This document shows positions 52,051-64,000 of a stretch of DNA of 64,000 nucleotides, piece by piece. A program made the translations under genes and the position numbers. The notes beneath the pieces are model-generated. The model did no database searches. It was given only the letters and a program-made list of their open reading frames with translations, and had not been told where the DNA came from. The first letter of the stretch is position 1; every line of letters begins with the position of its first letter. Source of the stretch: an uncultured Gammaproteobacteria bacterium (lineage in GTDB: Bacteria; Patescibacteriota; Microgenomatia; Levybacterales; GWA1-39-11); the NCBI GenBank assembly GCA_964406795.1, contig CAYOTA010000004.1, positions 46,877 through 110,876 of the forward strand. The letters are read 5' to 3'.

Positions 52051-52127
52051 TGGGGGCGGGAGCCGGATTTGAACCGGCGGCCTGAACGTTATGAGCGTTC
52101 CGATCTACCAGGCTGATCTATCCCGCC
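52051..52127 (-). tRNA. tRNA-Met (anticodon CAT)
   Basis: Cloverleaf folded by hand: acceptor GGCGGGA/TCCCGCC, D stem GATC, anticodon stem GAACG/CGTTC with loop CTCATAA, T arm GCCGG-TTCAAAT-CCGGC, encoded CCA. Confidence 0.85.
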
Positions 52128-61568: not shown

Positions 61569-61784
61569 TGCCCCCGTGTCAGTCGTGTGCTCGGCCACCA
61601 GACGGCGCAGCTTCTCCGGTCGGTCATGCTCGTCCGGCCACGCCAGCCTGATCTGCTCAACCCGCAATCGCCGCAAGTCCCGCGTCATCTGTTCGACCTT
61701 GGCGCTGGTCTCACGCATCAGGTCCTCCTGCGGATGCTTCACATCCGGCATCATCGCTCGTTGTTCTGGGGTCATGTTGTTCAT
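61566..61784 (-). CDS. small protein (72 aa, MNNMTPEQRAMMPD)
   Basis: ATGA overlap. Confidence 0.4.
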   Translation of the reverse strand: MNNMTPEQRAMMPDVKHPQEDLMRETSAKVEQMTRDLRRLRVEQIRLAWPDEHDRPEKLRRLVAEHTTDTGA

Positions 61785-61785
61785 T

Positions 61786-61909
61786 CGATCAGAAAGCAGA
61801 GTGTGACGAACGCGAATGCCAGCACGGACGCTACAATAGCGACAATGACATATTTCGCTACCTCCGACATGCTTACTTGTTCGCGTTCGCGTTTCCAATT
61901 TTGTTTCAT
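61786..61909 (-). CDS. single-TM miniprotein (~42 aa, MKQNWKRERE...VIVAIVASVLAFAFVTLCFLIE)
   Basis: Start overlaps helicase stop (ATGA); too short for the ORF track. Confidence 0.35.
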
Positions 61910-63576
61910 TCAGTTCCTTTCTCTCGTTTGTCAGGCATCAGTCCTCGCGCTCGTTCAACCAGTTCGCTCGGTAGCTGACGCTGGTAGCGAATGACCAAGC
62001 GCGCACCCAGCACAACCTGTTTGTCGGTCAGCCACGCCCGATCTGCCAAGCTCTTCCCAATTGCAACGTCCATCTTGCTGAACCCCGCGCCATCAATCCG
62101 TCGCGCACCATCGCAATACGCGGCAAGCGTCTGAAGTCCGGCCAGAACCGCCTTCCTCTGGTCTTCGTTCACCAGCAACGCGCTGCTCTCCATATCGCGC
62201 TTGGTCGTCAGCGGCTTCCACTCCGGAACAACCGTCACCTCCTCGACCGCCTGACGCTTCGTCATCTCGTCCAGCGCCTTGTCCGCCAGATCCGCCTTCT
62301 CCACGCAAGTCTTCGCCATCTTCGCGTCAATCGTTCCGGCGACCAGACAGACCTCGACCGTCACGTTGTCCTTTTGGCCAATTCGATGTGCGCGATCCTC
62401 CGCCTGTACCATCTTCGACGGCACCCAATCCATCTCGTGAAAGATCACGTGCGTCGCCGCCGTCAGCGTCAGTCCCTCGCCACAGGCCCTGATCGATCCG
62501 AAGAAATTCAGGCACGTTGGGTCGGTCATGAACCGGTGAACGCGCTCGTCCCGCTGGCCCTGGTTGTGCTGGCCGTGAACCACCACGCTCTCGCCCGGGA
62601 ATGCCGCGTGCAGCCTTTCAAGGACCTCCGTGTGATGGGCGAACACCAGCATCTTGCCCACCTCGTCCATGCGCTCCCGGATGTGCTCGATCATGCGCGG
62701 GATCTTCGCCACCGCCGTTTCCTTCCGGACCAACGCCATCTCGGTGAAGGCAATGCCTTGGACGGTCCGCAGGTTCTCGACCGCCCGCTTGTACTCGTCC
62801 GGGTTGTCGCTCGCCCGGGCAATCTCCACCGCCGCCTGAGCGTTCACCCGCGCTTCCTCGCTCCCGTCCCACGTCGCCTGCTCGCGCCGCCGCAGCGCCT
62901 CGAACTCTTCGCCGTCGAACTCGATGACGGTCCGAGTCTTCGCCGGCAACTCGGGAAGCACATCCTTCTTCAGCCGACGAATCATCACGTTCTCGCGCAG
63001 ATACGTCTGAAGCCGCTCCAGCCCAGGCTCTGTCGGCTCCGTCATCCCAACGCCTTGGACGTACTTCGCGCCAGCCATGTCCAGCAGCTTCCACTTGCTT
63101 GGGAACCGCTCCCGGTCCAACCACCACAGGACCGTCCAGAGTTCTTCCAGCCGGTTCTCGATTGGGGTCCCGGTCAGCGCCAGCTTGATCTTCCCCGGGA
63201 TGCCAGATGACGCGAGCTTCGAGTCCTCCGTCTTCTTCGGCTTGTACCCGAATATCGCCTTGGTCCTTTTGGCCGTTGGGTTCTTCGCCGTGTGGCACTC
63301 ATCGACGATCACCACATCCCAATCCCTATCTGTCAGTCGGCGCTCGAACTTGTGGCACAGGTCGTAATTGATGATCACCACATCCGAACTCGGGAACACC
63401 TTGCCCTCGACGATGCCGATGCTGAGCGCCCGATTGACCAGCCACTTCTTCGCCTCACGCCACCAGTTTAGCTTTAGGCTGGCCTTGGTGATGATCAGGA
63501 TATTGCTCGCCTCCGGGTGCGCGTTGCAGACTCCTAGAGCCTGGATGGTTTTTCCGAGTCCATTTAGCCCATCTCG
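61906..63576 (-). CDS. SNF2-family helicase; frame broken within motif I (possible pseudogene or sequencing error)
   Basis: GLGKTIQAL (motif I), DECH (motif II), LTGTPIENRLEELW (motif III), helicase-C QAEDRAHRIGQ; in-frame TGA six codons upstream of GLGKT. Confidence 0.7.
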   Translation of the reverse strand, partial: RDGLNGLGKTIQALGVCNAHPEASNILIITKASLKLNWWREAKKWLVNRALSIGIVEGKVFPSSDVVIINYDLCHKFERRLTDRDWDVVIVDECHTAKNPTAKRTKAIFGYKPKKTEDSKLASSGIPGKIKLALTGTPIENRLEELWTVLWWLDRERFPSKWKLLDMAGAKYVQGVGMTEPTEPGLERLQTYLRENVMIRRLKKDVLPELPAKTRTVIEFDGEEFEALRRREQATWDGSEEARVNAQAAVEIARASDNPDEYKRAVENLRTVQGIAFTEMALVRKETAVAKIPRMIEHIRERMDEVGKMLVFAHHTEVLERLHAAFPGESVVVHGQHNQGQRDERVHRFMTDPTCLNFFGSIRACGEGLTLTAATHVIFHEMDWVPSKMVQAEDRAHRIGQKDNVTVEVCLVAGTIDAKMAKTCVEKADLADKALDEMTKRQAVEEVTVVPEWKPLTTKRDMESSALLVNEDQRKAVLAGLQTLAAYCDGARRIDGAGFSKMDVAIGKSLADRAWLTDKQVVLGARLVIRYQRQLPSELVERARGLMPDKREKGTE

Positions 63577-63583
63577 TCAGCGA

Positions 63584-63979
63584 TTAAAACTCCGCAAGAA
63601 TCGCCGCGAGATGGGATGGGCATACCTCCTTTCCGTGCTTGATCCGAAACACTCTCCAGCCGAGCGCCGTCAGGACCGTTGTCTTTCGTAAATCCTCCAG
63701 TTGCTTCGCCCGTCCGTGGTGCGAAACCCCGTCCAGTTCTACCGCTATCCGGCGGGTCGGGTGGGCGAAGTCGGCCTTGTAGTTGAGGGGACACCGCAGC
63801 CCCGTCCCGTGTCCGGCCGTCCGAATTGCCACCTCCCGCTTGAACCCTATCGGTTCCAGAATTGCGGCAGCTTGCAGAACTTGCTTGGTCGGTGGCTGCC
63901 CGTTCCCTCCCCTGAAGTTCAGTCCCTCCCGCTTGGCCAACCCCGCAAGGTGCCGAGCCCGAACGCATGGGTCTCTCAT
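63584..63979 (-). CDS. DUF559 (Vsr-like endonuclease fold) protein
   Basis: ADFAHPTRRIAVELDGVSHH...DLRKTTVLTALGWRVFRI. Confidence 0.65.
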   Translation of the reverse strand: MRDPCVRARHLAGLAKREGLNFRGGNGQPPTKQVLQAAAILEPIGFKREVAIRTAGHGTGLRCPLNYKADFAHPTRRIAVELDGVSHHGRAKQLEDLRKTTVLTALGWRVFRIKHGKEVCPSHLAAILAEF

Positions 63980-64000
63980 CCGCTCCCTGGTTACGTCCGA

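Follow-up and report, generated by a model that had tools for sequence, protein, structure and literature searches.

A short coding gap in the Walker-A motif of a phage SNF2-type helicase gene points to a mobile nuclease cassette whose mini-insert may be bypassed by ribosome hopping

How can a helicase gene remain functional when its reading frame is closed by a stop codon within the Walker-A motif? This question is raised by a locus at the end of the window, by which we mean the whole stretch of 64,000 nucleotides analysed here (contig CAYOTA010000004.1 of assembly GCA_964406795.1, positions 46,877 to 110,876), where an SNF2-type helicase gene changes frame at motif I and a DUF559 nuclease gene lies directly upstream. 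All features of the locus are on the minus strand, and L and P numbers are our labels for loci and proteins, respectively. Judging from the sequences, the host gene is best read as a phage SNF2-type helicase gene that is occupied by a mobile homing-endonuclease cassette. We consider it probable, with considerable room for doubt, that a mini-insert belonging to the cassette protects the target and is bypassed by ribosome hopping, in a way analogous to mobA and gene 60 of phage T4.

The incoming helicase frame reads ...SCGVLIADEMG, with ATG at 63572-63570 and GGC at 63569-63567, and is then closed by TAA (63566-63564). The frame encoding GLGKTIQALGV... begins with GGA (63561-63559) and CTC (63558-63556), at an offset of 8 nt from the start of the GGC codon, and its first codons GGA CTC GGA AAA ACC occupy 63561-63547. 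A coding gap of 5 nt, TAAAT (63562..63566), which includes the stop of the incoming frame, separates the proposed take-off codon GGC (63567..63569) from the proposed landing codon GGA (63559..63561), after which decoding would resume at CTC. Upstream, the GLGKT frame is closed by TGA (63579-63577); downstream, it continues uninterrupted through 556 codons until the stop at 61908-61906, without an ATG, GTG or TTG start before the GTG at 63399. This C-terminal part (61906..63558; LGKTIQ..., motifs II-VI and the C-terminal domain up to the TGA) is 76% identical to P0002, an intact helicase of 679 amino acids, and matches the Pfam families SNF2-rel_dom (1.4e-22, from profile position 27) and Helicase_C (9.5e-16). 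The N-lobe, Helicase_C and motifs I-VI of an SNF2-family helicase are all present, motif I being complete only when the gap is skipped. A sequence-only reading of the same DNA had already described the break at motif I, with GVLIADEMG followed by TAA and GLGKTIQ resuming in another frame after a TGA, as well as the intact remainder, and both observations were borne out. The protein database lists this helicase as a gene call of 497 amino acids that starts at an internal GTG and lacks the P-loop.

The N-terminal part of the helicase was located outside the window. The public Logan contig L001 agrees with the window at every position of a 12,095-nt overlap and runs 7.1 kb further, and in it a region that aligns with residues 1-117 of P0002 (71% identity) is encoded upstream of the nuclease gene. 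The sequence-only reading had thought the N-terminus either displaced or beyond the window, and the second of these suggestions proved correct. In L001, the N-terminal part and GVLIADEMG share one frame with zero stops across the whole nuclease gene; within the window, this frame extends over 63564..64000, continuous with the N-terminal part, and ends in ...GVLIADEMG-TAA. That the helicase frame is open through the nuclease gene could not be seen in the sequence-only reading.

The 3' 414 nt of the nuclease gene and its stop codon are contained in the window (63584..64000), where Pfam assigns DUF559 with 3.2e-8, above the gathering score. With its ATG 147 nt past the window end (L001 6993-7556), the gene encodes 187 amino acids, and its stop TAA (63586-63584) lies about 22 nt before the GGA. 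The DUF559 assignment made previously therefore holds, whereas the length of 131 amino acids does not, and an exact protein look-up of the 131-residue in-window ORF (open reading frame) gave no match because the real gene is longer. DUF559 is a Vsr-like PD-(D/E)XK nuclease. The family found is small (38 proteins), and 39 sequences share the residues E137, D139 and H143 without exception. Compared with its 97%-identical relative in L226, the nuclease has a ratio of nonsynonymous to synonymous substitution rates (dN/dS) of 0.096, so that it combines a recognisable domain with purifying selection, as a homing endonuclease should.

The openness of the helicase frame was assessed by permuting synonymous codons of the nuclease gene and counting the stops that arose in the helicase frame. 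For the window (L001), 3.4-4.1 stops were expected and 0 observed (P = 0.013). Likewise, no stop was observed in L002 (4.5-6.1 expected, P = 0-0.008), in L094, L095, L097 and L100 (6-9.5 expected, P ≤ 0.0002) or in L166 (4.3 expected, P = 0.006), while the other alternative frame over the nuclease gene contains 10-19 stops. The stop-free frame suggests that the helicase is translated straight through the nuclease gene. When the window is compared with L226, the helicase frame across the nuclease gene has a dN/dS of 2.6, against 0.096 for the nuclease on the same DNA, and the nuclease is thus the constrained reading there. The amino acids of the helicase frame over the nuclease gene appear unconstrained, with only openness kept, in keeping with a passive linker some 200 residues long. 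In the AT-rich viral contigs L095/96, L097 and L100, the helicase is one continuous ORF through the nuclease gene and motif I is intact. The nuclease stop overlaps the Leu codon of GVLIA and occurs as TTT TAA, TTC TGA or TTC TAA, read in the helicase frame as TTA, CTG or CTA; every variant encodes Leu, and so both readings are preserved.

Nested Vsr-like ORFs were also observed in cultured phages, at +1 inside the annotated helicase coding sequence (CDS) gp44 of Pseudomonas phage MR14 (L224; MT104474.1 32056-34629) and inside the helicase CDS of about 37 Vibrio phages, e.g., NVP1088O_73 (L225 is Vibrio phage 1.088.O, MG592463.1 44535-47237). These ORFs have 240-260 codons and a zinc-finger-like N-terminus. 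Their host helicases are non-SNF2 with GxGKT near the N-terminus, the Vsr-like ORF lies downstream of GxGKT, and the helicase frames of MR14 and Vibrio phage 1.088.O contain 0 stops versus 4.8 and 13.7 expected, respectively.

Sporadic occupancy of one conserved site, with empty alleles in close relatives, is the mark of a homing endonuclease and was found here. All 8 of the 8 nuclease relatives in IMG/VR adjoin an SNF2-type helicase gene, at only 30-44% identity, and in 7/7 viral relatives whose contig continues past the nuclease gene this gene is located just upstream of helicase motif I (the contig of L098 ends inside the nuclease). The helicase of the occupied locus L002 is 88% identical at the protein level to that of the empty-site allele P0002/L230 and only 75% identical to the window helicase. 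At the DNA level, L002 differs from L230 by a block of about 600 nt in place of about 30 nt and by a 7-nt insert, TAATGGC, between ATGGGC and CTTGGAAAAAC. The junction of L230 is GCCGACGAGATGGGCCTTGGAAAAACC, with no gap there, and the empty site ...GACGAGATGGGCCTTGGAAAAAC... is the presumed target of the nuclease. The empty site in so close a homologue and the position upstream of motif I in viral relatives favour insertion of a selfish DUF559 nuclease, one of the possibilities that the sequence-only reading had listed.

Other nucleases were found at the same site. An HNH_3 nuclease (E=3e-12; 130-170 amino acids; motifs ...CHQ(I/V)GEGRKGG...VHH.D.N..NN...) replaces DUF559 in L103, L106, L113, L115, L151, L168, L178, L186, L189 and L191, and an endonuclease-VII-like ORF does so in L139. 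These inserts sit between the helicase N-part and GVLIADEMG and always accompany a gap of the Leu-stop-Leu kind and a helicase gene that truly falls into two ORFs, the second of which begins about 20-27 codons ahead of the gap. In L005, L102, L107 and L109, the nuclease is gone and the remaining cassette is kept, fused in frame. Just upstream of the nuclease start, and in the nuclease frame, a degenerate MGLG(K/R) was noticed in L094 (3440-3500), P0138, P0139, P0147 and P0155; these copies have the appearance of leftovers from the original motif I, which the cassette would have displaced. Close helicase homologues carry inteins at other conserved motifs (P0015, P0025, P0024; L005 6001-8652), either of LAGLIDADG type after ...CEDR (motif VI) or as a Hint-domain insert after DEC (motif II), and the helicase gene is a favoured site of selfish elements of several kinds.

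Gap alleles in relatives were collected with the junction pattern ATGGGN-N(7-11)-GGNAARACNATHCARGC, in which a stop codon was not demanded; true helicase junctions accounted for 8 of 11 matches in viral contigs and for 31 of 111 matches from metagenomes. Protein look-ups supplied additional ones, which brought the total to about 35 distinct gap alleles. Other searches contributed nothing: the window helicase as a single query found no match among viral contigs, a helicase alignment query found only distant intact helicases there because its search pattern was the intact motif itself, and a 20-mer of the cassette had 8 matches in genome contigs, all by chance. In the roughly 35 distinct relatives, which stem from other samples, a gap of 3-5 nt is present at exactly the same site, and in all of them its deletion yields the exact DEMGLGKT. 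A stop follows directly after the pre-gap codon (Gly or Leu) in all but one. Its identity drifts between TGA, TAG and TAA, never to sense, even though a sense codon in the in-frame type would merely add two residues. In about 30 of the 35 alleles, the last codon ahead of the resume point specifies the same amino acid as the take-off codon, although it would be non-coding under a hop, and the bases of the spacer (AT, T, CC, AC, C) are free to vary.

Of the matching alleles, 8 type-A lineages have Gly...Gly junctions, about 21 lineages have Leu-stop-Leu junctions, and a single one reads CTT TGA C CTC. Type A comprises GGC TAA AT GGA CTC in the window, GGC TAA T GGC CTT in L002 and L226, GGC TAA T GGT CTT in L228, GGC TGA AT GGC CTT in L004, GGC TGA AT GGC TTG in L188, GGC TGA CC GGC TTG in L094 and GGC TGA AC GGC CTC in L166; the stop stands directly after GGC in all of them, and the 7 lineages other than the window have GGC or GGT as putative landing codon. 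Type B consists of CTT or CTG, then TGA, TAG or TAA, then CTN in about 21 lineages, and of CTT TGA C CTC in L109. The window gap has 5 nt (TAAAT, followed by GGA) and that of L226 has 4 nt (TAAT, followed by GGC), with nucleases that are 97% identical. No single direction of frameshifting serves both, and a hop does. Gaps of 3, 4 and 5 nt are all best read, from their sequences, as resolved by one rule, a hop from the pre-stop codon to a matching codon.

[quoted passage not shown] In the window, its energy is -28 kcal/mol (z -3.3), and 0 of 200 shuffled sequences were as stable. Hairpins of 17-20 bp just 5' of the take-off codon occur in 32/32 distinct gap alleles tested and in L226, L228 and L229. 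Of the last 15 nt before take-off, 11-15 are paired in gap alleles, compared to a median of 6 in 65 intact alleles (Mann-Whitney P=8e-16), and the mean energies are -27.6 and -16.5 kcal/mol, respectively. Nuclease-bearing alleles that are gapless have no hairpin.

Compensatory changes were found at synonymous sites of this hairpin: the pair at the third base of the Gly codon is GC in 14, CG in 7 and UA in 4 alleles, and that of the Glu codon is CG in 23, UA in 6 and GC in 1. As alignments made with MAFFT lost register through gaps in the 5' arm, covariation was scored on a gapless construct with 12 nt per arm, which ignores bulges and hence is conservative. In this 12-bp register, 79.7% of the cells pair, compared to 74.2 ± 0.8% after shuffling and 37-53% in slid controls. 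Double-sided changes occur in 20 cells versus 7.3 ± 2.1 in shuffled sets, and 0 of 500 shuffles reached the observed values. The 5' arm is translated in differing frames, for example as CCA TCT CGC in the window and as ACC CAT CTT in L104, so that the constraint acts on nucleotides. A few nucleotides 5' of the hairpin, a Shine-Dalgarno-like AAGGAGG is present (63625..63631); by eye rather than by script, about 26 of 32 gap alleles, with any nuclease type, were seen to have a purine-rich (A)AAGGAG(G) at 0-9 nt 5' of the hairpin, and this element may take part in positioning the landing. A 28-nt sequence, CCCATCTCGCGGCGATTCTTGCGGAGTT (L001 7525-7552, corresponding to window 63615-63588), is identical in L001, L002 and L004, where the flanks are only 74-80% identical, and serves as nuclease C-terminus, as helicase-frame peptide and as 5' arm plus loop of the hairpin.

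From these features, we propose a cassette of three parts. The first would be the DUF559/Vsr-like gene, placed in the +1 frame after the N-terminal region of the helicase and before strand beta-1; host translation would run straight on through this gene, producing an unconstrained linker of about 200 amino acids. The second would be a replacement copy of the GVLIADEMG codons with which upstream sequence pairs to form the long hairpin, and the third the 5-nt TAAAT that separates the Gly codon from the Leu codon in the Walker-A sequence DEMGLGKT. At the DNA level, the mini-insert would break the conserved target of the nuclease, which would make a carrier genome immune to its own nuclease. During translation, the ribosome would stall with peptidyl-tRNA-Gly on GGC and TAA in the A site; the hairpin, re-forming behind the ribosome, may help to pull the mRNA through; the tRNA would pair anew with GGA, 8 nt further downstream, and CTC would be the next codon decoded. 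The product would be a helicase with the exact sequence ...ADEMGLGKT....

Several points weigh against this proposal. The hop is deduced from sequence comparison, and unstimulated stop-hops measured in E. coli are inefficient, reportedly at about 1% in the 1987 study by Weiss et al. The landing codon of the window is GGA and not GGC, so that two of three positions pair with the tRNA-Gly of anticodon GCC, and about 44 nt of linear sequence separate the Shine-Dalgarno-like element from the take-off codon, which means that any role of this element would need the hairpin to bring it near. Six lineages do not fit a cognate landing: CTT TGA CCC precedes GGN in L115 and L192, CTT TGA CC precedes GGC in L104/L217, CTT TGA AT precedes GGC in L151/L160/L173, CTG TAG TG precedes GGC in L229, where a GTG start arises from TAGTG immediately ahead of GKT, and CTT CCGTT without any stop precedes GGG in L191. 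Lineages with such misfits keep intact downstream frames. Also, the argument from selection given below assumes that the cassette is older than the split between window and L226, and its dating relative to helicase divergence is approximate; the proportion of synonymous differences (pS) is lower in the nuclease (0.22) than in its flanks (0.33), so that a somewhat later transfer is possible. As a separate observation, the gene call P0106 begins with MRWGCNLGKT.

Is a helicase made at all? The mini-insert might merely be an immunity scar in a gene that no longer yields a helicase, with flanks that look conserved due to recent, repeated homing into functional alleles. Such a dead helicase would suit a cassette of patchy distribution that is clearly mobile, the six lineages with gaps unfit for a cognate hop, and L192, where the upstream frame is closed as well. 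However, between the window and L226, the closest cassette-bearing relative, dN/dS is 0.089 for the C-part (549 codons, dS 0.44) and 0.094 for the N-part, i.e., about 0.09 on both parts of the helicase, and it is 0.15-0.28 in comparisons with more distant gap-bearing relatives. The resumed frame remains open for at least 391 codons in 28/28 junction loci with enough downstream sequence, covering the whole helicase core, and none of these 28 gap alleles has a second lesion in the core. A pseudogene should display relaxed selection and further lesions, and the idea of a recent pseudogene, raised by the sequence-only reading, finds neither. A stop codon retained through its changes among TGA, TAG and TAA, a covarying hairpin tied to the gap, and a helicase frame kept stop-free upstream of the gap, which would be pointless if translation ended there, likewise speak for a translated helicase. 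We therefore regard a dead helicase as unlikely.

Conventional recoding would demand a -1/+2 shift in the window, a +1 shift in relatives with 4-nt gaps and readthrough in those with in-frame gaps, leaving 1-3 extra residues in the P-loop. The CTT TGA C of many relatives is a classical prfB shifty stop, and, by our own reading of the sequences, the 5-nt gaps of Leu type could be read by a +2 slip from CUU to UUG. The programmed frameshift suggested before came close, yet gaps of 3, 4 and 5 nt would need shifts of 0, +1 and -1, and close relatives, even those with 97%-identical nucleases, would have to employ three mechanisms where one hop rule covers all. No slippery sequence is present in the window, a +1 shift at CTT TGA CTA meets TAG, the GxGKT loop would be lengthened, and the conservation of the second Gly or Leu codon would have no reason. 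A prfB-type +1 frameshift, which calls for the slippery CUU UGA C with a Shine-Dalgarno sequence 3 nt upstream, was rejected, since a shift of +2/-1 would be required in the window, where the sequence is GGC TAA A, and a +1 shift at the relatives' CTT TGA C reads GAC TAG. Altogether, conventional recoding seems quite improbable.

Alternatively, the gene might be expressed in pieces, by termination and reinitiation through a Shine-Dalgarno sequence bridged by the hairpin, with two polypeptides assembling like gp39 and gp60 of T4. The strong AAGGAGG at the foot of the hairpin would fit this scheme, as would the helicase of HNH-bearing relatives, which really consists of two ORFs, the GTG of L229 directly before GKT, and the TTG used as Leu codon in L094 and L188. 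However, the window and most relatives offer in frame only CTC, CTT, CTA or GGN, which are not initiation codons, and the split would lie inside the Walker-A loop; this explanation we hold to be very improbable. Finally, a sequencing or assembly error in this contig, suggested by the sequence-only reading and backed only by the general experience that frameshifts in metagenome assemblies often are errors, is practically excluded by the identical sequence in a second public assembly (L001), by the conservation of the feature, with sequence variation, in many independent samples (at least 10 others, the same architecture recurring in diverged loci such as L002/L003, L004, L226-L228, L094, L166 and L188) and by the fact that no single-base correction restores one ORF, as the 5 nt of TAAAT must be skipped. 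The interpretation offered by the sequence-only reading was thus supported in part.

Other candidates were considered and rejected. An intein was discarded, as the nuclease is in another frame, Pfam gave no Hint match and the helicase-frame peptide has the dN/dS of 2.6. A group I or II intron had no Rfam match at E ≤ 5 in L001 6100-8000, and only about 50 nt lie outside the nuclease ORF. The hairpin is not an intrinsic terminator, type A having no U-run, and initiation at the ATG within TAAATGG would occur in the wrong frame.

At its downstream end, the helicase gene is joined to its neighbour as described earlier: the stop at 61906-61908 overlaps, within ATGA, the start of a small ORF (61781-61909). 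Downstream genes in L001 are joined by similar 4-nt overlaps, a pattern typical for translationally coupled phage early genes. The sole tRNA in the window is a tRNA-Met (CAT) at 52051-52127 (minus strand), flanked by genes for the terminase and the Mu-like portal, which belong to the same phage-like region, and no suppressor tRNA was found in the window.

If the proposal of a bypassed gap is true, a second natural bypass system would exist beside T4 gene 60 and independent of it. For decades, efficient programmed bypassing has rested on T4 gene 60, and it was lately extended only to homologous topoisomerase cassettes. The chances appear evenly balanced that the gap alleles represent a family of programmed hops over short distances (stop-hops), the first natural one among genes of phages or bacteria and carried on a mobile cassette common to at least three unrelated nuclease families, and that the DUF559 version follows an undescribed strategy in which the nuclease is overprinted in the host ORF and the other frame is a harmless linker, with neither RNA nor protein splicing. 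The roughly 35 relatives would provide natural variants that differ in the length of the gap, the stop codon, the landing codon and the hairpin. Besides introns and inteins, transparency to the host frame would be a third way for a nuclease gene to live in an essential gene, and a nuclease-transparent host frame also occurs in cultured phages, namely Pseudomonas phage MR14 and the Vibrio phages. For annotation, it matters that gene callers split or truncate such helicases. A literature search found no description of this helicase-gap system.

The closest known counterpart is the mobile cassette formed by T4 mobA and the gene 60 bypass, in which the gap protects against the nuclease (bioRxiv 10.1101/2022.08.31.505936). 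In gene 60, a stop follows the take-off codon, take-off and landing codons match and a 5' stem-loop is present; some lineages have lost the nuclease and kept the bypass, and nucleases of other families can take its place (bioRxiv 10.1101/2022.08.31.505936). The 5' stem-loop is thought to drive forward movement by re-forming behind the ribosome, and an internal Shine-Dalgarno sequence takes part (10.1101/2022.08.31.505936; 10.1101/2024.12.09.627546). [quoted passage not shown] Similarly, relatives swap the nuclease family (HNH or Vsr-like) or lose the nuclease and keep the gap, and those with HNH nucleases have a split host gene in which the gap is about 20-27 codons into the second ORF. In contrast to gene 60, however, the host is the Walker-A motif of an SNF2 helicase and not the Toprim domain of a Topo2L gene, the gap measures 3-5 nt as opposed to 50 nt, which makes a take-off stem-loop inside the gap impossible, and the hairpin is wholly upstream with coding sequence as its 3' arm. 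Moreover, in the DUF559 version the host gene is unsplit and read through the nuclease gene in another frame, and bypassing is here a proposal drawn from comparing sequences. A published survey encountered gene 60 cassettes only in Topo2L genes (10.1101/2022.08.31.505936). We do not count the helicase locus among the gene 60 family, from which its host gene and its gap length set it apart and to whose cassette no homology is apparent.

Synthetic stop-hops resemble the gaps of type B most directly, since relatives possess CTT TAG CTA, CTT TGA CTT or CTG TAG CTG and the window has the out-of-frame version GGC TAA AT GGA. Weiss, Dunn, Atkins and Gesteland reportedly described in 1987 that, in E. 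coli, matched codons flanking a stop allow 9 nt to be read as one amino acid. Unlike those sites, which were engineered or adventitious and of low efficiency, the sites in helicase genes are natural, conserved and provided with a dedicated hairpin. Stop-hops over sequences of the CUU-UAG-CUA type work in E. coli; no natural in-frame stop-hop is known, and counterparts of bypassing over shorter distances have long been presumed (PMC5009743). The Byp elements of Magnusiomyces capitatus mitochondria (27-55 nt) are likewise mobile short inserts in essential coding sequence that are tolerated via bypassing, but they are organellar, need an unused A-site codon and relaxed mitochondrial decoding, carry no nuclease gene and belong to another size range. 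Finally, as with inteins and with group I or II introns that encode homing endonucleases, the arrangement proposed here would let a selfish nuclease live in a conserved gene without destroying it. Unlike in those elements, nothing would be spliced, the nuclease lies out of the host frame, and the host would translate the other frame as a linker.

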